From a virus, in the IMG/VR virus record IMGVR_UViG_3300045988_084041, positions 1-40,374 of that record: a stretch of 40,374 nucleotides of DNA, one strand, 5' to 3'. Numbering within the stretch: the stretch's first letter is position 1; every line of letters starts with the position of its first letter. The notes under the pieces were generated by a model. That model did not search any database and was not told the DNA's origin. It worked only from the letters and a program-made list of their open reading frames with translations. The position numbers were made by a program, and so were the translations under genes. This document shows, piece after piece, positions 1,683-37,377 of the stretch.

Positions 1683-1853
1683 TTAGTTATCTCCGCTGAT
1701 AATCTTCGCAACACTCACTTCAAGCGGGTGCTTTGCTTTAATGCGGTTTGTTATGCCGTATCCTTTTGATATGTACGCCTTAATCGACTTGTTGTCATCG
1801 GCATTTAAAACCACAACATCATCTCTTCCCGTCATTACTACATATTTGTTCAT
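1683..1853 (-). CDS. Small hypothetical early protein (56 aa)
   Basis: My translation: MNKYVVMTGRDDVVVLNADDNKSIKAYISKGYGITNRIKAKHPLEVSVAKIISGDN. AAAGGAA lies 9 nt upstream of the ATG. The stop is 5 nt before the next gene's ATG. Confidence 0.45.
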   Translation of the reverse strand: MNKYVVMTGRDDVVVLNADDNKSIKAYISKGYGITNRIKAKHPLEVSVAKIISGDN

Positions 1854-1995
1854 TTGAAAATATTCCTTTCACTATAATATTTTGCTTAGGGTGTTCCTTG
1901 CTCTCTTTGGCAAATGCGTTAATCATCGGAAATACTTCTCTGTGAAAATATTCTTCCGTTTTCTCATTCTCTGTTTTTGGTTTTCTTTTTAGCAT
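1819..1995 (-). CDS. Small hypothetical early protein (58 aa); overlaps both neighbours
   Basis: My translation: MLKRKPKTENEKTEEYFHREVFPMINAFAKESKEHPKQNIIVKGIFSNEQICSNDGKR. AAGGGA lies 8 nt upstream of the ATG. The 32-35 nt overlaps with adjacent ORFs lower confidence. Confidence 0.3.
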   Translation of the reverse strand: MLKRKPKTENEKTEEYFHREVFPMINAFAKESKEHPKQNIIVKGIFSNEQICSNDGKR

Positions 1996-2077
1996 TCTTC
2001 CTGTCCCTTTCTGCCAATTTCCAACTTATGATTAGTCCGATACCGAAACTTATCAGTGCAATTCCTATTGTATTCAT
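1964..2077 (-). CDS. Small single-pass membrane peptide (37 aa)
   Basis: My translation: MNTIGIALISFGIGLIISWKLAERDRKNAKKKTKNRE, a hydrophobic helix followed by a basic tail. AGAGAGG lies 8 nt upstream of the ATG at 2077. Confidence 0.45.
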   Translation of the reverse strand: MNTIGIALISFGIGLIISWKLAERDRKNAKKKTKNRE

Positions 2078-2124
2078 TTGTTTTACCTCTCTTTATCCTG
2101 TGAGCTTGTCCTATCGTCGGAGCA

Positions 2125-2358
2125 TTAAGCTCCTTTTTCTTTGTTTGCTTGAATATCATTGTACTCGTCAACCATCTTCTGCGACGGCTCAACCGTTACA
2201 TTGCCATACCCAAGCATATGATACATATTTTCTATATGAGGTTTCCAATGCTGAAACTGTTCATAAGCGGGTCTGTCTTTCCAACTGCCTACCACTTCAA
2301 CGTGTACTTTAGGTTGCTTTCTCGGCTTTCTTGCCTTTTTGGTCTTTTCCGCCTCCAT
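2125..2358 (-). CDS. Hypothetical early protein (77 aa)
   Basis: This is the track ORF 2125..2502 trimmed to the ATG at 2358, which has the strong RBS AGGAGGTGGAG. The longer form would overlap the antirepressor by 88 nt. Confidence 0.55.
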   Translation of the reverse strand: MEAEKTKKARKPRKQPKVHVEVVGSWKDRPAYEQFQHWKPHIENMYHMLGYGNVTVEPSQKMVDEYNDIQANKEKGA

Positions 2359-2414
2359 AATCTCCACCTCCTGCTTTAATCTATGTATTTCATTTTTTGT
2401 CCTATTACTTTGTA

Positions 2415-3203
2415 CTAAGCGATCTGCTCCTGTTCCATTATCGGAAGTATACCCTCGCTCTTTAACAATGCATAAATAAACAATCTGCCTTTTTGTGTCC
2501 AATACGTATTTACTTTAGAATGTTGCTTGCCGTCATTTCCGTTTACAGTATGCGTCTTTGTACTTGTATAACCTTTTTCAGCATATTCCTTATACAATAG
2601 CCATATCCCGCCTTGCTTAAACTGTATCTTGTGTTCTTTTAAGAAATTGTTTAACCATTTTGCCGACTTACCGTAATCCTTTGCTATTACAGTGACAGAT
2701 AATAAATCGGGGCAATTTAAAACTAAATCATAATATGACGCCTTTGGTTGAAGTTCCATAATCTGCTGTTCTTGAACTTTAACAGTAGTGTTTAGTTTCT
2801 TATTTTTCTCTCGTTCCAATTTTAATGCCGTAAACGCCTGTATAGCCAAATCGGGATTTTCCAATAGTTCTTCGGTCGCATACATTCCTGTTTTGCGTAT
2901 CGCCGGTAATACATCAGCCGTAACCCAATGCTTAAACTTCTTCGCATTCGGCATTTTGCTTGATAAGATAAGACTGTACAAACCCGATTCGTTTATAATG
3001 ATTGTTTCTTTATTCTGATTACCGTCAAAAAGCATGACCTTATGTCTATCTTCTTCATCTACATGGCGGTTAATATCTCGACTACCGTTTTGGTACTCGA
3101 GGATTTCCGCTACATCCTTACCGACAAACATAATCTCTCCGTTTACTGTTGTTGTTCTTACAGAGCCAAACTCTGCATTTTCAAATACCTTTAATTCTTC
3201 CAT
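2415..3203 (-). CDS. Phage antirepressor (Bro-N domain + KilAC-type C-terminal domain)
   Basis: The N-terminus, MEELKVFENAEFGSVRTTTVNGEIMFVGKDVAEILEY, is the typical Bro-N/ANT signature. The gene sits directly downstream of the cro-like gene. Confidence 0.8.
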   Translation of the reverse strand: MEELKVFENAEFGSVRTTTVNGEIMFVGKDVAEILEYQNGSRDINRHVDEEDRHKVMLFDGNQNKETIIINESGLYSLILSSKMPNAKKFKHWVTADVLPAIRKTGMYATEELLENPDLAIQAFTALKLEREKNKKLNTTVKVQEQQIMELQPKASYYDLVLNCPDLLSVTVIAKDYGKSAKWLNNFLKEHKIQFKQGGIWLLYKEYAEKGYTSTKTHTVNGNDGKQHSKVNTYWTQKGRLFIYALLKSEGILPIMEQEQIA

Positions 3204-3220
3204 AACTTTAATTTTCCTTT

Positions 3221-3236
3221 CTTGCGTTTTCGTAAG
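3221..3236. promoter_or_regulatory. Operator-like imperfect palindrome CTTGCG-TTTT-CGTAAG
   Basis: It belongs to the same motif family as 3462-3477 and 3549-3564. It lies between the cro-like stop and the antirepressor start. Confidence 0.45.
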
Positions 3237-3446
3237 TTAGATTCCAAAAAAAATTGAATCTCGTTCTTGTTCGTCAAGATTTAATCGTTTAGTTAAAATT
3301 TTAATCTCTGCTCTCGAAAAATCACCATTTCGTGATATTTTTCGATAAAGAGTAGATAAATTAATATCTAACCATTCTGCTACATCTTGCATAGAATAAC
3401 CTCTTGCCACTACAGTACCCTTTAATAACTCTTTTTTAAATTCCAT
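3237..3446 (-). CDS. Cro-like HTH transcriptional regulator (69 aa)
   Basis: Translation: MEFKKELLKGTVVARGYSMQDVAEWLDINLSTLYRKISRNGDFSRAEI... The gene is divergent from the XRE repressor. The start was moved to the ATG at 3446 because the track's upstream ATG lies inside the operator palindrome. Confidence 0.7.
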   Translation of the reverse strand: MEFKKELLKGTVVARGYSMQDVAEWLDINLSTLYRKISRNGDFSRAEIKILTKRLNLDEQERDSIFFGI

Positions 3447-3461
3447 TATATCACCCACTTT

Positions 3462-3477
3462 CTTGCGTTTCCGCAAG
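3462..3477. promoter_or_regulatory. Operator: perfect palindrome CTTGCG-TTTC-CGCAAG
   Basis: Read directly. It sits immediately downstream of the -10 of the leftward promoter. Confidence 0.6.
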
Positions 3478-3480
3478 TAT

Positions 3481-3509
3481 AGAATAGCACATTAAACATT
3501 CTTTGTCAA
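3481..3509 (-). promoter_or_regulatory. Leftward early promoter (cro-like/antirepressor operon)
   Basis: On the minus strand: TTGACA (3509-3504), a 17-nt spacer, then TGcTATTCT (extended -10, 3486-3481). Confidence 0.6.
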
Positions 3510-3548
3510 TACTTTTTCGCAAGTTTTTTATACTTTTTTGAATATTTT

Positions 3549-3578
3549 CTTGCATTATTGCAAGTGGCGTGCTATAAT
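3549..3578 (+). promoter_or_regulatory. Rightward repressor promoter overlapped by operator CTTGCA-TTAT-TGCAAG
   Basis: TTGCAT (3550-3555), a 17-nt spacer, then TATAAT (3573-3578) preceded by TGc. The perfect palindrome at 3549-3564 covers the -35. Confidence 0.65.
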
Positions 3579-3601
3579 ATCTTTAAAGGGAGGTTTTTAA
3601 T

Positions 3602-3946
3602 ATGGCATTAAAAGATGATTTAAAACAACGACGCATTGAATTAAATCTCACTATGGCAGAAGTAGCAAAAAAAGTTGGAGTAAGTGAAGCGACAATATCA
3701 AGATGGGAAAGCGGAGACATTGCAAATATGCGTAGAGATAAAATTGTTCTACTATCAAAAGCACTTAAAGTTTCTCCATCTTTTATTATGGGATTAGATG
3801 ATAACCAAGAAACAGGCAATGAATTAGAGGGCGTATACTTTAGTTTAGCAAAAAATGCGCAAGACGAGGGTATTGACCCCGATGATATATTAACGGCTAT
3901 TGAGATGCTAAAAAAGCTAAAGTCAAAAAGAAAGGAAAATGAATAA
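3602..3946 (+). CDS. XRE-family (CI-like) repressor
   Basis: HTH_3 signature LTMAEVAKKVGVSEATISRWESG. RBS AAGGGAGG. Followed directly by an ImmA-type protease gene. Confidence 0.85.
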   Translation: MALKDDLKQRRIELNLTMAEVAKKVGVSEATISRWESGDIANMRRDKIVLLSKALKVSPSFIMGLDDNQETGNELEGVYFSLAKNAQDEGIDPDDILTAIEMLKKLKSKRKENE

Positions 3947-4633
3947 GTGCTATATCTGTCAAAAAAAGATTTATACGAACGTGTAGAAAGATTTAGAAGA
4001 TTAATAGGCATTAATGATTCTGCTTACCCTTTAGATATATTTGATTTATGTCAAAATAAACTGTCAAATATTGCAATAGGCAAAGTAAACTTTAAAACTA
4101 ATGATTTAAGAGGTATGGCATTTATATCTAACAACCTTCAACGCGAAAATCATGTAATTCTAGTAAATGCAAATAAAACACAAGCAGAAATAAATTATCA
4201 TGGTACACATGAACTTATGCATATAGCAATTCAAAATAATTCAGGTGTTCAAGCATTTAAGTGTTATGATAAAGTTAAACCAACACAAGATTTTTACACT
4301 GAATGGCAAGCTAATGAGGGAGCCGCAGAATTTTTAGTTCCTTATAAACTATTACTACCGCTTATAAAAGAGAATTACAATAAACTGCAAGAAGATTTTG
4401 GTACATACTATTTTTCTGAAAACTGTTCTCTTCTATTTGGAGTTTCGAGAGTGGTTATGCAAAATCGCCTAAATGCCTTAAGTTATGAAATAGAACAATA
4501 CTTAAATGGTACATCATTAGACAGTATAAGAATATTATCTAATTCGCAACAAAAGCGAGAAGGAATAAATACATTATCATTAAATCAGCTTGAAGATATT
4601 AGACTCATGCAATCGATTGAAAATTTTAAATAG
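3947..4633 (+). CDS. ImmA/IrrE-family zinc metallopeptidase
   Basis: HEXXH motif (THELMHIA). The position immediately after the XRE repressor is the canonical ImmR/ImmA pairing. GTG start abuts the repressor stop. Confidence 0.8.
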   Translation: MLYLSKKDLYERVERFRRLIGINDSAYPLDIFDLCQNKLSNIAIGKVNFKTNDLRGMAFISNNLQRENHVILVNANKTQAEINYHGTHELMHIAIQNNSGVQAFKCYDKVKPTQDFYTEWQANEGAAEFLVPYKLLLPLIKENYNKLQEDFGTYYFSENCSLLFGVSRVVMQNRLNALSYEIEQYLNGTSLDSIRILSNSQQKREGINTLSLNQLEDIRLMQSIENFK

Positions 4634-5309: not shown

Positions 5310-6788
5310 ATGAATGTAGCTATGTATTTACGAAAATCAAGAGCAGACGAAAACAATCCGCTTGAAACACTTGAACGTCACAAAGAAATTCTTCTTTCTT
5401 ATGCAAAGGACAATAATTTAACGGTCATTGACATATTTGAAGAAGTGATAAGCGGAGGAATGTTATACAACAGAACGGAAATGCTGAAACTACTTGACGC
5501 TATTCCCTCGCACATATATGATGCGGTATTATGTATTGACCTTGACCGTTTAGGGCGCGGAAGTGCCGCAGACAGTGAAAAAATCTTTGACGTTCTTAAA
5601 GAAAACGATGTAAAAATTATTACGCTCAAAAAAATATATGACCTCAACAACGAGTATGACGAAGATTACAGTGAATTTGAAATGTTTATGGCTCGAAAGG
5701 AGCTTAAATTCATCACTCGCAGAATGAACCGCGGACGTATCAAATCAATCAACGACGGTTGCTTTGTGTCGGGTGCTCCGTTTGGTTATCGAAATGCCGT
5801 AATAAATAAAAAGCACACGTTGGAAGTATATGAACCGGAGGCAAAATATGTTCGTATGATATTTGATATGTACGTAAATCAAAGTATGGGTATTACTTCA
5901 ATAAGCCGTCAGCTTGCAAATTTGGGTGTCTTGAGCAAGAAAAATACACCGCTCCACCCCACCACAATCGCCCGTATGCTCCGAAATCATACTTACATAG
6001 GTAAGATAGTGTGGAACAAATCAAAGTCTGTTAAAGGCAAAAATACGCAAGAAAAAACGAGTAAAGATGATTGGTTATATGTTCCCGGACTGCATGAGCC
6101 AATAATTGACGAGGACACGTTCAACAAAGCACAAGATATTATAAATCTGAAATACAAACCGCCTATGCGTACAGGCACGTTGCAAAATCCGTTTGCAGGG
6201 CTTTTAAAGTGTGCTAATTGCGGTCGGGCAATAGTTATCAATACTTCTAACGAAACCGTTGAAAAATACCGTCTTTGCTGTCGTACACTTGGTTGTAATA
6301 AGGCATCTGCATTGAGTATTGTAGAAGATAAAGTATTTGAAGTGCTTACAAAGGAATTTAAAGATATTGAATTGTCTTTGAAAAATATCCGTCAATCGCA
6401 TAATAAAGATAAACTTTCCTGCCTTGATACAATAGCCACTTTGGAAACAGAATTAAAAAAACTTGATAAACAACAACTCCGTCTGTATGACTTGCTCGAA
6501 CAGGAAGTCTATACAAAAGAACTTTTCCTTGAACGCAATAACGCAATTTCAGATAGAAGAAAAAAAATTAATGCCACGATAGCACAGGAACGTGAAAAAT
6601 TTAAACTTGTGGATACATCTTCCGTCGAAGAACGACTTCCCCTTTTGCGTGAACTTCTCACTAATTACCACTCTCTTTCAGCCGCCGAAAAAAATTCCAT
6701 TCTTAAAAATTTCGTAAAAAAAATTGAATATAAACGTGAAAAATCCGCTCCCAAGGGCGATATTTTCTTGAAAATCTATTATAAATAA
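5310..6788 (+). CDS. int: Large serine recombinase (phage integrase)
   Basis: N-terminal resolvase-type catalytic region (MNVAMYLRKSRADE...DRLGR), a recombinase domain, a Cys-rich zinc ribbon (CANCGRAIV...CCRTLGC) and a C-terminal coiled coil. Length 492 aa. Confidence 0.9.
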   Translation: MNVAMYLRKSRADENNPLETLERHKEILLSYAKDNNLTVIDIFEEVISGGMLYNRTEMLKLLDAIPSHIYDAVLCIDLDRLGRGSAADSEKIFDVLKENDVKIITLKKIYDLNNEYDEDYSEFEMFMARKELKFITRRMNRGRIKSINDGCFVSGAPFGYRNAVINKKHTLEVYEPEAKYVRMIFDMYVNQSMGITSISRQLANLGVLSKKNTPLHPTTIARMLRNHTYIGKIVWNKSKSVKGKNTQEKTSKDDWLYVPGLHEPIIDEDTFNKAQDIINLKYKPPMRTGTLQNPFAGLLKCANCGRAIVINTSNETVEKYRLCCRTLGCNKASALSIVEDKVFEVLTKEFKDIELSLKNIRQSHNKDKLSCLDTIATLETELKKLDKQQLRLYDLLEQEVYTKELFLERNNAISDRRKKINATIAQEREKFKLVDTSSVEERLPLLRELLTNYHSLSAAEKNSILKNFVKKIEYKREKSAPKGDIFLKIYYK

Positions 6789-29126: not shown

Positions 29127-30361
29127 ATTCCGTACTCCTCTCTTGAATAGATTTTAGCTTTCTTATCCTTGCGCCAACTCTCAACGCCGTATCTCAGTGC
29201 CGCCATTGCATCATCAAATACATTGACGGGTTCGTCAGTATACTCGTCCGACTTTTCATCAACTCGCCAACGCCATTGCTGTATCTCTTTGATTACATTC
29301 ACGCAAGACGGGTGAATGTGTATCTTTCTGCCTTTTAACCAGTCAATCTGCGATTGTATGCTGTTCGGATTTTTAACAACTGCCCTTGCGCGATAGCCTG
29401 CCTTTCGCCACATTTTTATACGGTCCGGCTCTGCACTGTCGCACCACATTGCAAGACTTTTGCTGAACTTCCCGTCAGCTTTAGTGATAATTTCGGTCGT
29501 ATCCATTTCGTGTACATACAGTTCATTACAAACGTAAATATCGCCGTCCTTATAACCTAACGTCAATATAGCATTTGCGTGATTAAATCCGAAGTCCTGT
29601 CCTATTGCCATAGCGTCAAAACGGCTCATATCTGTATCAAATTCTTCAATGCGATAATTTGAGAATATCAATCCGCCTGTTTCGCCCCATTCACCCAGTC
29701 CGTAAATTCTGTATCCCTCAGGGTCAACTTCTTTACGACGTAGCATACGTTGCCTGTATGCCTCGTCACAAAATCGGTTTGTTAAATATGTGCTTTGGTG
29801 CGTTAAGACGTTATCGTCCTGTATGTCGAAAAACACTTTCTTTATCCAGTGACTTGACGATACAGGGTTAAATGTCAATTTTATCTGATAAAAAAGACCG
29901 TCGGGGAGTTCACCTCTCAAACGGTCATCTATAATTTCAAAATCCTGTTGTACAAGTTCCGTAGCCTCTTCAATCCATACGTCCGTTAATTTTCCGTTTG
30001 CAAATGTGATTGATTTCAGTTTTTCACGTTGCTTGTTATCGTTGACACCGCGAAATATAATCTTGTTGCCGTTTATACAGGTGAACGACAACGGACTTTG
30101 CGTAACTCGCCACGCTCTGCCTACGCCCATACGGTTTATGGCACTTTCAAGCTCCGCAAAAGTGCTGTCGCGGTTTGTTATGTCGGACTTTCTCACACAT
30201 ACAAGATTACGTCCTTTGTCACGCATTAAACGAAGTATGTACAGTTGTGCAGTATCAACACTCTTGCCACTTCCGGCACTGCCTTTCATTACAACATAAC
30301 GCTTTTTACATTGATGTACAGGTTTGAATATCGGATTGAACGGTACTGTTATTTTGTTCAT
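29123..30361 (-). CDS. terL: Terminase large subunit (PBSX/Terminase_3-like)
   Basis: Walker A VVMKGSAGSGKS. Start placed at the ATG at 30361, with GGAG 9 nt upstream. The track's longer form overlaps terS by 107 nt. Confidence 0.85.
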   Translation of the reverse strand: MNKITVPFNPIFKPVHQCKKRYVVMKGSAGSGKSVDTAQLYILRLMRDKGRNLVCVRKSDITNRDSTFAELESAINRMGVGRAWRVTQSPLSFTCINGNKIIFRGVNDNKQREKLKSITFANGKLTDVWIEEATELVQQDFEIIDDRLRGELPDGLFYQIKLTFNPVSSSHWIKKVFFDIQDDNVLTHQSTYLTNRFCDEAYRQRMLRRKEVDPEGYRIYGLGEWGETGGLIFSNYRIEEFDTDMSRFDAMAIGQDFGFNHANAILTLGYKDGDIYVCNELYVHEMDTTEIITKADGKFSKSLAMWCDSAEPDRIKMWRKAGYRARAVVKNPNSIQSQIDWLKGRKIHIHPSCVNVIKEIQQWRWRVDEKSDEYTDEPVNVFDDAMAALRYGVESWRKDKKAKIYSREEYGI

Positions 30362-30830
30362 CGTCATCATCTCCGTAATCGATTTTAATGCTGTAGTCCA
30401 TATCACCGTCAACGTTTAATTTGTCTGTAAACAATGCGTAGTATTTACCCAACATTTCCGCCGCTTTGTTTACGTCCGACACCTTTGTCGGTATTTCAAC
30501 ACATATCGGTTGCTCCGCCTCATCAATTACTTTCTTGCCGTTATTATCGTAGTATGATTTTCGTGCTTTACACGTCACTACAACCGTTTCGGGTTTCTCA
30601 CGTCGCATAACAGCCGTAAGCGTTTTCAATACCTCATCTTGTTTGGCGATAAGAGCGTCCTCTTTCTCTTTCAGCCGTTTTTGTATGTATTCTTGAATTT
30701 CAGGTTTCTTCAAGTTCTCATTCCCAATCGAATACGCCGTCTTTTCCGAATATCCTGCTCTTAACGCCGCTTGCGTTGCATTCAAATCAATCAAATATTC
30801 CTCACAAAACCGTTTCTGTTTCTCCGTCAC
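30306..30830 (-). CDS. terS: Terminase small subunit (Terminase_2/P27-like)
   Basis: TEKQKRFCEEYLIDLNATQAALRAGYSEKTAYSIGNENLKKPEIQEYI is the typical N-terminal HTH. Start moved to the GTG at 30830 (AGGAGGTG plus 6 nt), because the track's ATG at 30869 lies inside a terminator stem. Confidence 0.8.
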   Translation of the reverse strand: MTEKQKRFCEEYLIDLNATQAALRAGYSEKTAYSIGNENLKKPEIQEYIQKRLKEKEDALIAKQDEVLKTLTAVMRREKPETVVVTCKARKSYYDNNGKKVIDEAEQPICVEIPTKVSDVNKAAEMLGKYYALFTDKLNVDGDMDYSIKIDYGDDDDEQNNSTVQSDIQTCTSM

Positions 30831-30860
30831 TCTTATCACCTCCTGTTTTATCTCATAAGA

Positions 30861-30886
30861 AAAACACACCCGATTAGGTGTGTTTT
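30861..30886. terminator. Bidirectional terminator AAAACACACC/GGTGTGTTTT
   Basis: A perfect 10-bp stem with a 6-nt loop, followed by a T-run in minus orientation. It lies 3 nt after the stop of the 4-TM gene. Confidence 0.7.
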
Positions 30887-30889
30887 AAA

Positions 30890-31513
30890 TTATTCATCGT
30901 TATCTTCACTTAAAAAATCAATAAATTTATATGATATATTTACCCTAAATAACGAAATAGTATTATAAATTGTACTTTTTATTTCTAAAAATACTCTAAA
31001 TGACAAGCTATAATATATAAACAATATAACAAAAGCCAATATATCACTAAAAGTTTTATTAATGATAATAAATTCATTATTTATAACTGATATAAATATT
31101 TTTATTATAAATGTTATTGCAATATTCACAAAATATAAAAACAATACTTTTTCATAATATGATAAATATTCTTTTAATTTTGACTTTTCTCCATTATCCA
31201 TCTTTATTCTAGATAATATTTTTAGCATATTGTCATTAAAAAAAGCTAATATAATAGAATATATGGTGAATATAATTCCAAACAACGCAAGTTGCACATT
31301 TAGAAACTCACTTATTATTGAATTTGTAACTACTACTGTTTCAAATGAAAAACTAGTTTTCCATGAAATATACGCCCCCAAAAGCAATGCTATAATTCCT
31401 AATATTACATCATCTTTCTTTAATTTAATCATTTTTAATGCCATTTTTATTATTTTATTAGATGGTGGTATCTTAATCATATCTATTGCGGCTTGCTTAT
31501 ACTCATTCTTCAT
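30890..31513 (-). CDS. Four-pass membrane protein (207 aa), second gene of the AT-rich cassette
   Basis: Hydrophobic segments: VILGIIALLLGAYISW, LALFGIIFTIYSIILAFF, VLFLYFVNIAITFIIKIFISVI and ILAFVILFIYYSLSFRVFL. AAGGTG RBS lies inside the upstream gene, with a 4-nt intergenic gap. Confidence 0.7.
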   Translation of the reverse strand: MKNEYKQAAIDMIKIPPSNKIIKMALKMIKLKKDDVILGIIALLLGAYISWKTSFSFETVVVTNSIISEFLNVQLALFGIIFTIYSIILAFFNDNMLKILSRIKMDNGEKSKLKEYLSYYEKVLFLYFVNIAITFIIKIFISVINNEFIIINKTFSDILAFVILFIYYSLSFRVFLEIKSTIYNTISLFRVNISYKFIDFLSEDNDE

Positions 31514-31517
31514 ATAA

Positions 31518-32480
31518 TCACACCTTTATAATCTTCCTTAATCTATCTACAGCTTTTTCAAACAAAGTTAAATTTTCAGAACTTGTTTTAGTTATTTTTT
31601 CATTTTTTTTCGCCTGACTAATCAAATATTTATCATCTTTTGAATTTATATTTCCATCAAAAATAATATCTGTATCTGATTTAAATTGCCCTTCTTTTAT
31701 ACGGACCACACTTCCATCAGAATTTTTTAATCTTAAACTTGTAACAGCCAAACCAGATGTATCTTGCACATTTTTAATTATTGTTTCAATAGACCTAGGA
31801 CTATTAATTTTCAAATTAGCAGAATTAGCCTCTAATTCTTTTATTTTTTGGTCCACATCATTCGCAAATTGAAGTGGTGATATGTCTGCATTTAAAGGGA
31901 AGAATTTAAAGTTGATCCATTCGATTTTTTTTGCATGTTTTAATGTATTCCTTATCTCTTCATCAAAAGGCATATCAACAATATTAATATTTGCCGCGGG
32001 TAAGTTATCTTCTTTTTTTCTTTCAAGATTACTTATATGTATATAGTTATTAATCATCTTTCTAAAATGTGCTTGAAAACTTCTTACATCAGGACTTACA
32101 CTGTCATTTTTTATTAGCACCATTCTGTGATTCTGTAAAAAAATTATAAATCTTGAATATGGAGACGATGGAACATACATATCTTTTTCTTCTAATTCTC
32201 CATTTTCCATAGTAGTATTTACACTGTATCCCATATTTTTGACATAGTTGCCTACTAAAACTATGTCATCGTCAATTTCCTTAACTTTTACATCTGTCAA
32301 TACAAAATTCATACCTGTTTTGTTTGGAGATTCTCTAATATATCCGCTTGTCATTGCAGGATATATTATATCAAAAAAATGTTCTAACATAGGCTCCGAA
32401 TCATTTCCAAATGTAATATTGAAATTAGCATAATACATTTTCTTATTAGTATACTCACTACTTATTATTTTATTTGCCAT
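31518..32480 (-). CDS. Soluble protein of unknown function (320 aa), first gene of the AT-rich cassette
   Basis: ORF track entry. GGAGGATAAAATT-ATG RBS. No catalytic motif recognised by eye. Very AT-rich. Confidence 0.7.
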   Translation of the reverse strand: MANKIISSEYTNKKMYYANFNITFGNDSEPMLEHFFDIIYPAMTSGYIRESPNKTGMNFVLTDVKVKEIDDDIVLVGNYVKNMGYSVNTTMENGELEEKDMYVPSSPYSRFIIFLQNHRMVLIKNDSVSPDVRSFQAHFRKMINNYIHISNLERKKEDNLPAANINIVDMPFDEEIRNTLKHAKKIEWINFKFFPLNADISPLQFANDVDQKIKELEANSANLKINSPRSIETIIKNVQDTSGLAVTSLRLKNSDGSVVRIKEGQFKSDTDIIFDGNINSKDDKYLISQAKKNEKITKTSSENLTLFEKAVDRLRKIIKV

Positions 32481-32651
32481 AATTTTATCCTCCGTAAAAA
32501 TTGTATTTGTGTATATAATTCGACAATATCACACAAAATTCCTTTTTTAGAAGAATAATTTTTTTAATATCTCCACTCCCACAAATCACACGAGATATTC
32601 ACCCATCATCTCACGATGATACACCGCTTATGTTACTAATTCCACGATACA

Positions 32652-33089
32652 CTATATCACAGATGCAATATAACATTCTATAACATCTTTAATCAAATTC
32701 AATGCCTTACCGTGCAAACGGCATATTTGCATATAGCTGTAATTCATTTTGCAAGCAATCATTTCCCACGTTTGAAAATTCAGATAACGCAAAATTAATA
32801 TAGTTCGAAGTGTTGCGTCGTCGAGTTTATTCACGTTTTCCAAAATCTCTTTTTTAATTTCGTACAGTCTGTCAATGCGTTTATCTATCAATTCGGAATA
32901 AGCGGCATAGCTTATGAACTTATTCTCCGAAGTATTCACGTTTGACGTCTGCACCTTTTCACTGCCCGACTGAGCCACAGTGCTTGTTGCGTTTGTCAAT
33001 GCTCGCTCCTGCTCCAAAATCAATGCGTTAATCTCCTCGTCCGTCTTTCTCGCTCTCGAAAGCCATTCTTTACATTCTTTAATCGTCAA
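32652..33089 (-). CDS. Sigma-70 region-4-like late-gene regulator (DUF1492 / ArpU-RinA-like)
   Basis: The C-terminus, DDATLRTILILRYLNFQTWEMIACKMNYSYMQICRLHGKALNLI, resembles a region-4 HTH. It sits between the replication and packaging modules. Confidence 0.6.
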   Translation of the reverse strand: MTIKECKEWLSRARKTDEEINALILEQERALTNATSTVAQSGSEKVQTSNVNTSENKFISYAAYSELIDKRIDRLYEIKKEILENVNKLDDATLRTILILRYLNFQTWEMIACKMNYSYMQICRLHGKALNLIKDVIECYIASVI

Positions 33090-34469: not shown

Positions 34470-34734
34470 CCCTTAACAATTTATCAACTTTATCCTTTGT
34501 ATCAATCACATAAACGTGAAACCCGAGTTTTTCAAAAAGTCGGTGTACGGCGGTTTGTAATTTTCTCGGCTTTCCGTTCGGGCGTTTAAGTTCTGCGAAG
34601 TATATCGTACCTTTCGGAATCATAACAATCCTATCCGGTACGCCTGCCATACTCGGCGACACGAATTTCAGTGCCAAACCTCCCATTTGCTTAACCTGTC
34701 TTACTAAATATTTTTCAATGTCCTTTTCTATCAT
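34450..34734 (-). CDS. VRR-NUC domain nuclease
   Basis: GVPDRIV...YFAELKRPNG gives the PD...ExK arrangement. Size is 94 aa and the gene is adjacent to the SNF2 helicase. Confidence 0.75.
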   Translation of the reverse strand: MIEKDIEKYLVRQVKQMGGLALKFVSPSMAGVPDRIVMIPKGTIYFAELKRPNGKPRKLQTAVHRLFEKLGFHVYVIDTKDKVDKLLRGENFEF

Positions 34735-34756
34735 TTTTCCACCTGTTCTTTCTGCG

Positions 34757-34991
34757 ATAACTTTAAAACCGTTTTGCCTATACTTATACGCGTATATGTG
34801 CGTTATGCGTGCGTGTTTCTCTTTGTACTGTATATATGTATATAATATATAGAATTAAAGTTACTAAAGTTATATATGCCCTAAGCTATTGATTTTACTG
34901 ATTTTTCGGGATAACTTTCAAAAGTTATACAAAGTTATAAAAGTTACCCCGAATGTTACTCATTTGGGTCTAAGTTACCTATGAAAGTTAT
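34757..34991. repeat. Iteron array AAAGTTAY (about 9 copies, both orientations) plus an AT-rich stretch; candidate replication origin
   Basis: Copies at 34757-64 (inverted), 34857-64, 34866-73, 34911-18 (inverted), 34921-28, 34931-38, 34940-47, 34972-78 and 34984-91. A partial GTTAC lies at 34955-59. TATATATGTATATAATATATAG lies at 34831-34852. Confidence 0.6.
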
Positions 34992-37377
34992 GCTCTTTTT
35001 TAAAGCCTTTTTGCACTCCGTAATCCTTATTAAAACGCATTGCCTTATCGTATTTTTCCCAATCGTCAAACGATGAAATGATACTGTTAATTTCTATCGA
35101 ATCCCTACGTTGAATTTGCCTAAAATCGCCGTTAAAGAGTTCGCACCATATTTCAAGCGCACACACTCTGTCACGTTCGACAAGTTCTTCTTCCGGCACA
35201 CTCACAATCTCCGACCAATAATCACGACGCTTTGATAAGTCCCAACTATTCCAATCCGACGGAACACGTTTATCAAGGAAGTCACGGATAAGTCCCTCTT
35301 TAACCGACACTTCCCTATGATCTGACTGCACTTGTTTCGCAAGCTGTTCCGTTTCCTTTGACAAATAAAGCGGTTCATTCTGCGTATAACGCACTTTTGC
35401 CTCCGCCCAAATCTGATTAATTTCCTCATCGGTCAAATCGGTAAACACGCTCTTTTTTATCGGCACAATCTCCGTATCAACAGGCCAAAATCTTCTGTTA
35501 CCGGTACGGTCACGAAGATAATCGCTGTTATTGCTCGTACCGAAAAATACACATCTTCGCGGGTGTTCCTGTACAATTCTGCCGTATGCCGCGCGGTATC
35601 TGTCCGACGTCTGCGACAGTATCTGCTTAACACTGCCGACTTCCGACTTATTAAGTGCCTCAAGTTCGCTTATCTCTACAATCCATTTACCCTGTATAAC
35701 CTCGCACAATTCCTTACCCTCGAACGTCTTTATGCCGTCCGTAAACCACCTGTCAAAGCCGACTTTGCGAAGTATCGTACTCTTGCCTATGCCCTGTCTG
35801 CCCGACAGAATAAGCATATTATCGAATTTACTTCCCGGCTCATACGCTCTTGCGACCGCTCCGACGAACATTTTACGCGTCACTTCTCTTGTATATTCGT
35901 TATCCGCCGCACCGAGATAATCGACAAACAATGTGTCAAGTCGTTCCGTATTATCCCACGCAAGACCGTCCAAATATTCAACAATCGGATCATACGCAAC
36001 ACGTCTGTAAAACACCGACAACGCACGGAAAACCTTATCATTACCCATTTTAATGCCGTACACATATTCAAGATACCACTGCAATCCGTCCGTATCGGAA
36101 TCCTGCCAAACACGTTTTTCAGGTGCGTCCTTATCCCAAGGCATAATGCCGTCAATCTCCGCATATCCCGTAAAATCGTTCATTTTGATTTTACCTTTTA
36201 AATGCGAATCATTCTCAATTATAAGAATAATATTATTAAGAGTTTTTTCGTAAGCGCCTGTATTTTCGTTTTTCTCCAACTTTAACGCCCACTGCATATC
36301 GTCCGTTTCTTCGTTTTCGATACCGCCGAAATCTTCTGCCGCTTTCTTTTGACGTTCCTTAAACATAAGCATTGAAACATCACTGTCACCGTCTATAAGC
36401 TTGCACATTGCCGAATATGACGGCAGTTTCGATACAGGTGTACCGTCCTTTGCGTCTGAATCCGTATCGCCGAATTTATGAATACGAACAAGGTCAAAAC
36501 TGTTGCACAGCTTACCGCTTGCAGGGTCTGTTGCGTGGTTTGAATACGCAAATTTGCCGTTCTCATACACTACAAGTCCGCTTGAACTTGATCCGTCCTT
36601 GTATGTGTATCTGTCGCCTACGGCACACTTTTCGTACACGTCCGAAAGGTATTTTTCTATGCACGAATGTATATCGTACGTTCTGCAAAACGCACCGATA
36701 ACGCCTTTTTTAAGCGTTGGGTCCTCTTGTTTTTTTACCTGTCTGTCCAACGCCTTTGTTGTTCTTGACGAAACGTACCAACTCGATACGTCGTGCCAAT
36801 CTTCATATTTTGCAAGCACCTTGTCAACGTCAAGCGGTTTATTTTCCTCGTGTTCAAACACATACTCGCCATCAATGCTCGTACTCGGCCAATACATTAA
36901 ACGGTGCGGCTGATACGTTGTGTCGTCAAACATATCTATACCAATATCATACGCCACCATTCTCGCAACAGCTTCGTATTCATCGGGCGTACAAGGTCTT
37001 GACAGAAGTATCACCAAACGAAATCTCGGCTTTTCGGCTGTGTGCTTGTGCGTTGAGTAAATGCAGTATGTAAAATCGTAAAACATTGAAATATTATCGC
37101 AAAAATCACTGTCGGCAAAGTCTGCGTCAAGCGTAAGCAAAATTCTGTTTTCGATACTTCCCGACTGTCGCTTGCCGTTTTTCACCTTACCGCCCACAAA
37201 ACCGCCGACGTCCTTTATATCATCCTGTTGTGACTTCGGCATATTTGCAAATTCACCTTGCGTTTCGCTCGTCCTTGTTGTCGTTTTCAGCCTTTCGACA
37301 AAATCTCCCCACGACATTTTTGTATTTTTCCATAGTTTTGATTTTCTGTTTTGTCCCGTAGCAATTACTAAATCCAA
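34975..37377 (-). CDS. Bifunctional primase-polymerase / VirE (D5-like) helicase
   Basis: An 800-aa ORF with TTG start (GGGGGTG RBS). Walker A LSGRQGIGKST, Walker B-like WIVEISEL. The C-terminal half is VirE-like. Confidence 0.8.
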   Translation of the reverse strand: MDLVIATGQNRKSKLWKNTKMSWGDFVERLKTTTRTSETQGEFANMPKSQQDDIKDVGGFVGGKVKNGKRQSGSIENRILLTLDADFADSDFCDNISMFYDFTYCIYSTHKHTAEKPRFRLVILLSRPCTPDEYEAVARMVAYDIGIDMFDDTTYQPHRLMYWPSTSIDGEYVFEHEENKPLDVDKVLAKYEDWHDVSSWYVSSRTTKALDRQVKKQEDPTLKKGVIGAFCRTYDIHSCIEKYLSDVYEKCAVGDRYTYKDGSSSSGLVVYENGKFAYSNHATDPASGKLCNSFDLVRIHKFGDTDSDAKDGTPVSKLPSYSAMCKLIDGDSDVSMLMFKERQKKAAEDFGGIENEETDDMQWALKLEKNENTGAYEKTLNNIILIIENDSHLKGKIKMNDFTGYAEIDGIMPWDKDAPEKRVWQDSDTDGLQWYLEYVYGIKMGNDKVFRALSVFYRRVAYDPIVEYLDGLAWDNTERLDTLFVDYLGAADNEYTREVTRKMFVGAVARAYEPGSKFDNMLILSGRQGIGKSTILRKVGFDRWFTDGIKTFEGKELCEVIQGKWIVEISELEALNKSEVGSVKQILSQTSDRYRAAYGRIVQEHPRRCVFFGTSNNSDYLRDRTGNRRFWPVDTEIVPIKKSVFTDLTDEEINQIWAEAKVRYTQNEPLYLSKETEQLAKQVQSDHREVSVKEGLIRDFLDKRVPSDWNSWDLSKRRDYWSEIVSVPEEELVERDRVCALEIWCELFNGDFRQIQRRDSIEINSIISSFDDWEKYDKAMRFNKDYGVQKGFKKEHNFHR

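Follow-up and report, generated by a model that had tools for sequence, protein, structure and literature searches.

A two-gene cassette between a late regulator and the small terminase gene

The viral sequence IMGVR_UViG_3300045988_084041 from IMG/VR, analysed here over its full 40,374 nucleotides (the window), carries two minus-strand open reading frames (ORFs), denoted g1 and g2, between the genes for a late transcriptional regulator and the small terminase subunit (terS). An earlier sequence-only reading of this DNA had singled out the two ORFs as a candidate undescribed defence or abortive-infection pair, in which a soluble protein is encoded together with a small membrane protein.

31518–32480, minus strand: g1, ORF for a 320-residue soluble protein, the proposed cytoplasmic sensor
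30890–31513, minus strand: g2, ORF for a 207-residue four-pass membrane protein, the proposed effector
31521–31526, minus strand: AAGGTG, ribosome-binding site of g2, read off the sequence within the last codons of g1

The arrangement of two coupled genes described in that reading, with a 4-nt gap and the second ribosome-binding site inside the first gene, is reproduced from the sequence. The TGA stop codon of g1 (31518–31520) is followed by the tetranucleotide TTAT and then by the ATG of g2 at 31513; this short gap and the AAGGTG site inside the end of g1 indicate that the two genes are translationally coupled. Upstream of the cassette, 171 nt of non-coding DNA extend from the stop of the regulator gene (32652) to the start of g1 (32480), again as had been noted. 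The cassette contains 25.1% G+C compared with 39.4% for the whole window, and the local counts reported earlier, 10 G+C in 60 nt at 31021–31080 against 26 in 60 nt at 30421–30480, are exact. The fraction of G+C at third codon positions is 0.17–0.20 in g1 and g2, compared with 0.43–0.48 in five neighbouring genes.

Co-inheritance and genomic settings of the pair

Homologues of g1 are numerous: the protein collection contains 83 clusters of them at 90% identity, and at 50% identity there are 697 representatives (E ≤ 0.001). At the latter level the family, of about 700 clusters, reaches across Bacillota and Pseudomonadota and includes one homologue on an archaeal contig. Homologues of g2 form 35 clusters; a protein identical to g2 is indexed in 527 sample blocks, and the contigs that carry it reach 0.2–1 Mb. 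Profile hidden Markov models (HMMs) of both families were built and run on 44 non-redundant loci. In every one of the 38 non-redundant loci with at least 600 nt of downstream sequence, a g2 homologue directly follows the g1 homologue on the same strand; the gap between them is −74 to +44 nt in 37 of these loci and 265 nt in one. Pairing extends to the remotest members of the family, which include proteins from Acinetobacter, from a prophage on a Klebsiella plasmid and from a Methanimicrococcus contig, as well as a metagenome protein annotated as DUF4747. g1 and g2 are one unit, subject to obligate co-inheritance.

The pair is found in varied surroundings. It occurs at prophage ends after the lysis genes (for example in Desulfosporosinus youngiae), beside integrases or recombinases, whether within lysogeny modules or on mobilisable elements, and in chromosomal islands, in one setting with AAA_21 plus RloB, an OLD-type TOPRIM and bAvd, and in another with Dam, DUF87 and Mrr_N. 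A remote pair on the Klebsiella pneumoniae plasmid NZ_CP083056.1 (L159, 5054–7655) lies directly after a phage CI repressor and before an integrase. Such sites are typical positions of prophage-borne exclusion genes. The prophage that holds this last pair is P2-like and rides on a conjugative IncF plasmid with qnrS1; the membrane-protein gene is missing from the plasmid gene table.

In 8 of about 38 non-redundant loci, a gene for a NA37 protein (PF04245, YejK-like, 327–337 residues) is found directly after the membrane-protein gene (L007, 9611–10615; L152, 9757–10770; L154, 9591–10586; also L038, L043, L044, L047 and L048). The last of these, a g1–g2–NA37 trio at 1777–4382 of the Methanimicrococcus sp. 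contig JAJDHP010000048.1, is on a contig assigned to an archaeal methanogen, and reflects either inter-domain transfer or assembly contamination.

A cargo slot with conserved boundaries

Relatives of the window phage were collected through terS. We fetched 80 viral contigs with a terS 74–97% identical to that of the window, 51 of which have enough upstream sequence to be assessed. Only one of these 51 carries g1 and g2, and this carrier is a near-identical phage that was also found via g1. Alternative contents of the slot, read in contigs L061–L140 over the equivalent of window positions 30895–32555, comprise an N6 DNA methylase (528 residues, N6_Mtase), a DNPPF methylase-like protein (287 residues), membrane proteins of 140 or 172 residues, a zinc-ribbon protein (128 residues) together with a two-pass membrane protein containing a CyanoTRADDas_TM domain (155 residues), or merely a small basic protein of 53–80 residues. 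A PADLOC search of these other cargo genes gave nothing significant. DNA homology with the relatives has sharp boundaries, breaking off near 32555 and resuming at 30842 or at 30891–30897. Intact copies of the cassette are found in at least three phage backbones that differ in their replication modules, and one of these backbones has an unrelated terminase and a sheathed, myovirus-type tail. The cassette is thus accessory cargo (a 'moron'), present or absent among relatives, with sharp edges and a deviant composition, and the regulator–terS junction is a cargo hotspot. That the pair would prove to be cargo and not phage core had been anticipated in the sequence-only reading, and the variable content of the slot, as opposed to strict conservation of the pair among relatives, bears this out.

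The slot and its flanks contain the following features:

32652–33089, minus strand: late transcriptional regulator, upstream flank (phrog_36, E = 4e-23; weak matches to DUF1492 and Sigma70_r4)
32566–32624, minus strand: invariant ~60-nt element immediately after the regulator gene, left-hand slot boundary, conserved in relatives
32481–32555, minus strand: cargo-side AT-rich leader, with the g1 ribosome-binding site GGAGG at 32489–32493; homology with relatives ends at about 32555
30861–30886, minus strand: hairpin terminator, right-hand slot boundary, common to other cargo types (fold z = −4.25)
30306–30830, minus strand: small terminase subunit, downstream flank (Terminase_2, E = 3e-40; phrog_51)

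The invariant element has the sequence GTGTATCATCGTGAGATGATGGGTGAATATCTCGTGTGATTTGTGGGAGTGGAGATATTAA and is present in nearly all terS-relatives with upstream sequence, where it stands behind both regulator alleles and before every cargo type. It is probably a late promoter or a regulator-binding site, and we regard it as a candidate for either. Its predicted RNA fold (z = −1.0) is no better than that of shuffled sequences, and an Rfam search of the whole window returned no match. As read from the alignment with relatives, the AT-rich leader is on the cargo side and outside the phage backbone. The same 75-nt leader and the same first codons (MAN...) recur in the relative L088 (3213–4941), where they are followed by a different gene pair, encoding a 327-residue soluble protein and a 198-residue multi-pass membrane protein with no detectable similarity to g1 and g2 (hhalign probability below 1%).

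At the other edge, the hairpin consists of a perfect 10-bp stem (11 bp with a closing G-U pair) followed by U-rich sequence. Its free energy is −13.8 kcal/mol, and none of 200 shuffles folds equally well; a stricter terminator scan did not report it. The hairpin is kept in relatives with other membrane-protein cargo and is also found beside the cassette where the latter adjoins an unrelated terS. Being common to other cargo, the terminator belongs to the slot. The perfect 10-bp stem recognised in the earlier reading is therefore real, but it is not the cassette's own. The terS ORF spans 30306–30869, and its likely start is a GTG at 30830 after AGGAGG. Between the hairpin and this start lie about 30 nt, with the terS ribosome-binding site close behind the hairpin and no room for a promoter; late transcription could reach terS past the hairpin by read-through or antitermination.

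The window also contains a lysogeny module, made up of a Bro-N/ANT antirepressor (2415–3203, minus strand), an HTH_3 repressor (3602–3946), an M78 peptidase (3947–4633) and a serine recombinase (5310–6788). The serine recombinase, the repressor with its M78 peptidase and the length of the contigs that carry g2 indicate that the window phage is a temperate prophage, and in metagenome contigs the prophage is integrated beside trmD-rimM-rpsP-ffh. The host phage is a temperate phage of Clostridia-type gut bacteria. Elsewhere in the window, a second AT-rich dip (34650–35100, G+C fraction 0.31–0.32) covers an intergenic gap at 34735–34974 that separates a 94-residue ORF from the gene for an 800-residue VapE-like primase/helicase.

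Conserved features and models of the two proteins

Neither g1 nor g2 has a significant match in Pfam (DUF4868 included), PADLOC 2.0, PHROGs or NCBIfam, the first two being libraries against which the sequence-only reading had suggested that the pair be checked. Pfam scans of 34 and 49 family members likewise gave nothing significant, and a PDB sequence search with the family profile returned only a chance match (E = 0.18). No nuclease, NTPase or other enzymatic family was found for the pair by sequence or fold, in agreement with the earlier remark that gene 1 lacks a recognisable nuclease, NTPase or protease motif. Confident matches to families involved in packaging, phage structure or DNA metabolism, which would have spoken against a defence role, are likewise lacking; a marginal RdgC-like fold, considered below, is the sole DNA-related signal. 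Searches of 50,697 phage genomes, by megablast with the 6-kb region and by tblastn with g1, found no match, nor did tblastn of g1 against plasmids.

The AlphaFold model of g1 (pLDDT 91, pTM 0.87) shows an N-terminal seven-stranded beta domain (residues ~10–152) and a C-terminal alpha/beta domain (~163–275), followed by C-terminal helices. Residues invariant over 34 g1 sequences include N19, F20, N21, T23, P107, S109, H118, N125, S129 and P130, and G77, H118 and P130 are still invariant in a 49-sequence alignment that reaches down to 18% identity. N19, N21, T23, S109, H118, N125 and D131 form a strongly conserved polar cluster. The gene also contains a homopolymeric tract that varies in length:

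31925–31932, minus strand: A8 homopolymer inside g1, with A7 and A9 frameshift variants in near-identical relatives

The tract reads A7 in contigs L011 and L073 and A9 in L050–L052. These variants split g1 into an ORF of 191 or 195 residues plus a second ORF, and g2 stays unbroken; the window itself has an unbroken g1, as do 6 of 10 near-identical contigs that were checked. The variation may reflect decay, an assembly or homopolymer error, or on/off switching (phase variation). A frameshifted g1 next to an unbroken g2 argues against g1 being an antitoxin for g2.

For g2, a Kyte–Doolittle scan and the AlphaFold model (pLDDT 83) both give the four hydrophobic helices that had been seen earlier, which the scan places at residues 36–54, 73–91, 123–141 and 158–176. 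Lysine and arginine residues number nine in the N-terminus and seven in the central loop, and none and one in the other loops; by the positive-inside rule, both termini are thus predicted to be cytoplasmic. The best-conserved part of the protein is the end of the fourth transmembrane helix (TM4) together with the helix that follows, with the consensus FRVFYExKSTIYNTIxLFR, in which N184 never varies and E177, K179, S180 and F189 hardly do. A Foldseek search of the g2 model against a viral structure library found nothing significant. The best viral fold matches of the g1 and g2 models nonetheless come from one and the same uncultured phage, which points to a further, more distant pair of this type. 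One 227-residue protein among the homologues (P0115) has the N-terminus of a g1 homologue followed by the C-terminal three quarters of a g2 homologue, and is either a deletion fusion or an assembly chimera.

Comparison with Rex-type systems

The starting lead for assigning the pair to a known kind of system came from faint precomputed DUF4747 matches on two g1 homologues. DUF4747 is reported for the soluble components of lambda RexAB, Sbash gp30/31, CarolAnn gp44/43 and Butters gp30/31, whose partner in each case is a four-pass membrane protein. Like lambda RexAB, the cassette is a two-gene operon in which the soluble protein comes first and is followed by a four-pass membrane protein whose termini and central loop are cytoplasmic (a predicted topology for g2); it is likewise prophage-borne and dispensable for phage growth. 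The transmembrane scan applied to g2 gives four segments for RexB and for CarolAnn gp43 as well. The remote pair on the Klebsiella plasmid follows a CI repressor just as rexA and rexB follow cI in lambda and as genes 44 and 43 follow gene 45 in CarolAnn. The Rex-like systems of actinophages and Pseudomonas (Sbash gp30/31, CarolAnn gp44/43, Butters gp30/31 and P. putida RexABpp) combine a soluble protein of 337–372 residues with a four-pass protein of 148–178 residues in the same order, and Sbash genes 30/31 adjoin holin and tail genes outside the immunity region, similar to the pairs found after lysis genes at prophage ends. In P. putida, RexA is a 37.5-kDa protein and the sizes of RexA and RexB match those of g1 and g2; RexA binds DNA as a dimer, and its overexpression causes RexB-dependent growth arrest and membrane leakage (PMC12894663). 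Rex-like systems are mutually divergent and are tied together only by weak HHpred matches to DUF4747 or RexA. CarolAnn gp44 itself has no match to DUF4747 with hmmscan, so that weak signals are what unites the Rex-like class as a whole.

Structural comparison points in the same direction at marginal strength. The order of elements in the g1 model (seven-stranded beta, alpha/beta, C-terminal helices) parallels the description of the RexA crystal structure, in which a split seven-stranded globular domain is combined with an alpha/beta dimerisation domain in an RdgC-like fold; RexA has been reported to resemble RdgC and Iml3 in structure (PMC11077077). In a Foldseek search of the viral structure library with the g1 model, two RdgC proteins were the sole named matches (E = 2.4e-3, probabilities 0.90 and 0.69). 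Iml3 ranked third in the corresponding PDB search, with a marginal E of 0.065. For the g2 model, a Sbash protein of 165 residues (the length of gp31, which it may be) ranked 13th. The fold evidence, from predicted models, is thus marginal, yet directed toward Rex. At the sequence level, the remote family member P0283 reaches E = 3e-49 with the family profile and 2.9e-4 with DUF4747, and the gene downstream of it matches the g2 profile at 2e-11. Relatives of g1 share with gp30, gp44 and Sejanus gp46 a series of motifs, ANFN, G[RN]xI and NS[DE]G, whose order is conserved; this is suggestive, though only that, of kinship with the actinophage Rex-like proteins. On this comparison, we rank lambda RexAB and its actinophage relatives (Sbash, CarolAnn) as the closest analogue of the pair, above Kiwa.

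Several results weigh against a Rex assignment. Neither g1 nor g2 matches the RexA (PF15969) and RexB (PF15968) models of Pfam or the RexA and RexB models of PADLOC at E ≤ 1, whereas lambda RexA, as a control, matches the RexA models at 1e-97 (Pfam) and 9e-110 (PADLOC). Alignment of the family profiles with lambda RexA, RexB and CarolAnn gp44 and gp43 by hhalign gives probabilities below 1% (0.3% for the g2 profile against RexB). When the g1 alignment was compared with a three-sequence actinophage alignment, a co-linear match over 97 columns was obtained with E = 0.14 and a probability of only 0.4%, and the g2 alignment gave nothing against the actinophage membrane proteins. With the family HMM, built from 209 sequences, 9 of 300 shuffles score as high as RexA (p ~ 0.03), and 59 to 145 of 300 score at least as high as the actinophage Rex-like proteins. 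Of the precomputed PF15931.11 matches on P0283, P0036 and P0008, hmmscan with PF15931.10 recovered only that on P0283, whose DUF4747 score (20.8 bits) lies under the Pfam gathering cut-off of 27, and neither g1 nor about 80 family members match DUF4747 (PF15931). The RdgC fold matches have TM-scores of only 0.24–0.30; against the PDB, Foldseek found nothing below E = 0.04 for g1 and placed both RexA (8TWQ) and RdgC outside the top 50. The 165-residue Sbash protein has the highest target TM-score for the g2 model, 0.44, yet an E of 1.9. The polar cluster of g1 looks like a specific site and not like a non-specific DNA-binding surface, and nothing known of RexA explains it. A promoter scan found matches no commoner than in shuffles and no convincing sigma-70 match in the 75-nt leader, and late expression of the cassette is possible, given its place in the leader of the late operon.

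There are also differences of size and setting. g1 is 41 residues longer than RexA and g2 63 residues longer than RexB, and g2, unlike RexB, is extended by about 35 residues at the N-terminus and carries the conserved cytoplasmic helix behind TM4. Whereas the lambda genes are co-transcribed with the repressor, the window cassette (30.9–32.5 kb) lies 24 kb from the repressor module (2.4–6.8 kb), in the regulator–terS slot of a phage whose host range is Clostridia-type gut bacteria. Linkage to the repressor is not shared by all Rex-like systems, however, Sbash being an exception. No model in PADLOC 2.0 recognises either the g1/g2 family or the actinophage Rex-like family. Taken together, these comparisons suggest that the pair is probably a new, unannotated family of Rex-like sensor and membrane-effector systems; Rex-family membership by sequence was tested and not shown. 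The epithet 'undescribed' given to the pair earlier thus holds at the family level, as the closest kind of system is already described (lambda RexAB, Sbash, CarolAnn, P. putida).

Comparison with Kiwa, PANGU and RdgC

The sequence-only reading had likened the cassette to Kiwa, in which a four-pass membrane protein (KwaA) is paired with a soluble protein of about 300 residues. In Kiwa, kwaA precedes kwaB, whereas here the soluble gene comes first. The window proteins have no match to the KwaA and KwaB models of PADLOC, neither they nor about 80 family members match DUF4868, and no Kiwa structure is found among the PDB fold matches of g1. Owing to this lack of a family match and the reversed gene order, we reject the Kiwa analogy.

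PANGU systems invite comparison through the loci that contain NA37. In these systems, genome damage caused by phage is sensed by YejK-like nucleoid-associated proteins, which then switch on effectors of diverse kinds, membrane proteins among them, and an untested 'Cluster4' consists of two conserved hypothetical proteins upstream of a nucleoid-associated protein gene (bioRxiv 10.64898/2026.04.06.716658). The likeness resides in a DNA-clamping soluble protein that activates an effector (a membrane protein in type II) and thereby aborts infection. The g1–g2–NA37 loci may represent 'Cluster4', and where NA37 is present, the effector module may consist of g1 and g2. In the window, tblastn finds no NA37 homologue anywhere, and hhalign of g1 with the NA37/YejK-like protein gives a probability of 0.3%; with the family HMM, 4 of 300 shuffles score as high as NA37 (p ~ 0.01). 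The PANGU effector Pag2B, with an N-terminal DNA-mimic domain and a C-terminal transmembrane region, is unlike g2. RdgC, a recombination-associated DNA-binding ring dimer (PDB 2OWL), is a marginal fold match of g1 with no sequence match; unlike g1, it is a stand-alone housekeeping or phage recombination protein and has no membrane partner.

Proposed mechanism and alternative explanations

A role of the pair in defence or exclusion, as supposed in the sequence-only reading, is likely in our judgement, and fits the co-inheritance of the two genes, their spread over accessory sites of mobile elements and their neighbours in defence islands. For the more specific proposal that the cassette is a horizontally acquired accessory pair, constituting a Rex-type system of two components for exclusion or abortive infection, we see an even balance of probabilities, and the same balance applies to operation of the pair by the Rex mechanism. 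From the analogy we infer DNA sensing, interaction of g1 with g2, channel activity, expression in the lysogen and protection. On such a mechanism, soluble g1 would adopt an RdgC/RexA-like fold of two domains, probably as a dimer, and would survey or sit on DNA or a protein–DNA intermediate and change state on replication of a superinfecting phage or on DNA damage. Activated g1 would then engage the cytoplasmic face of g2, for which the K/R-rich N-terminus, the central loop and the conserved helix after TM4 are candidate contacts. g2 would in turn oligomerise or open as a channel or pore, and the ensuing loss of membrane potential and ATP would arrest the cell and abort the infection.

A defence module that follows a logic other than that of Rex is unlikely by comparison, and two versions can be considered. 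g1 and g2 could be an effector module that answers a YejK-like sensor as in PANGU, with the sensor provided in cis in some loci and here absent or supplied in trans. The 8 of about 38 loci with NA37 directly after the membrane-protein gene, the activation of membrane-protein effectors by the YejK-like sensors of PANGU and the comparable layout of 'Cluster4' speak for this version; the window, however, has no NA37, and about 80% of the loci contain two genes only, suggesting that the pair is self-sufficient in most elements. Alternatively, the membrane protein could be the sensor or modulator and the soluble protein a DNA-directed effector, as proposed for Kiwa and Butters gp30/31. The soluble Butters protein is the main effector of its system, and the polar cluster of g1 could be a catalytic or effector site, but g1 and g2 belong to no enzymatic family by sequence or fold, match neither DUF4868 nor KwaA/KwaB and have the gene order opposite to Kiwa. 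We also entertain, as a tentative possibility, that g1 and g2 are not Rex descendants at all but an independent, widespread two-protein membrane-effector module, in which the polar cluster (N19, N21, S109, H118 and D131) would be ligand-binding or catalytic and which would act alone or behind a YejK-like sensor ('Cluster4').

The position of the cassette, between the late regulator with its conserved element and terS, and the lack of promoter room between the hairpin and terS suggest a different role, in which the pair is transcribed with the late operon and serves the lytic cycle of the phage, through holin- or antiholin-like lysis timing, a block to superinfecting DNA entry or assistance to packaging at the membrane. 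Several other cargo genes of the slot also encode small membrane proteins, and lambda rexB, too, is expressed from a late promoter. We nevertheless hold such a role to be improbable: 50 of the 51 close relatives package and lyse without the pair, frameshifted g1 variants persist in otherwise intact phages, other prophages carry the pair outside late operons (after the lysis cassette or by the repressor or integrase), and it is present in chromosomal islands and mobilisable elements that are not phages. Selfish maintenance or control of lysogeny, with g2 as a toxin restrained by g1 or with g1 as a RexA-like modulator of the lysis–lysogeny decision, is quite improbable. The tight, translationally coupled and always co-inherited genes would suit such a function, as would the several elements that hold the pair in lysogeny modules by repressors and recombinases; moreover, RexB is not required for the bias that lambda RexA imposes on the bistable switch (PMC11077077), and leaky co-expression of the P. 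putida pair is toxic (PMC12894663). Yet near-identical phages combine a frameshifted g1 with an intact g2, which would be lethal if g1 were an antitoxin, the window cassette is 24 kb from the repressor module, and the defence-island contexts would be left unexplained. The frameshift variants of g1 and the extremely AT-rich composition could finally be taken as signs of a decaying passenger that no longer has a function. This we consider extremely improbable, as both families are large and retain invariant residues over deep divergence, both models are of high confidence, the window and 6 of 10 near-identical contigs have an intact g1, and the exact g2 sequence recurs in 527 sample blocks.

Implications

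Only five Rex-like systems have been described (PMC12894663). How RexA senses infection and how RexB opens are still a puzzle some 70 years after Benzer's rII experiments, and a large, deeply conserved family with confident models provides a tractable handle on systems of this kind. Its conserved residues, N19 and H118 in g1 and E177, K179, S180 and N184 in the post-TM4 helix of g2, are targets for mutagenesis and for modelling of the complex. The slot, bounded by the invariant 60-nt element and the common hairpin, is a ready-made hotspot for mining phage-borne conflict genes. Were g1 and g2 instead an independent module, they would represent a portable effector cassette common to several sensing strategies and maybe switched at the A8 tract. 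If the Rex-type reading is confirmed, Rex-type exclusion would extend to abundant prophages of gut Clostridia, where current defence catalogues register nothing.

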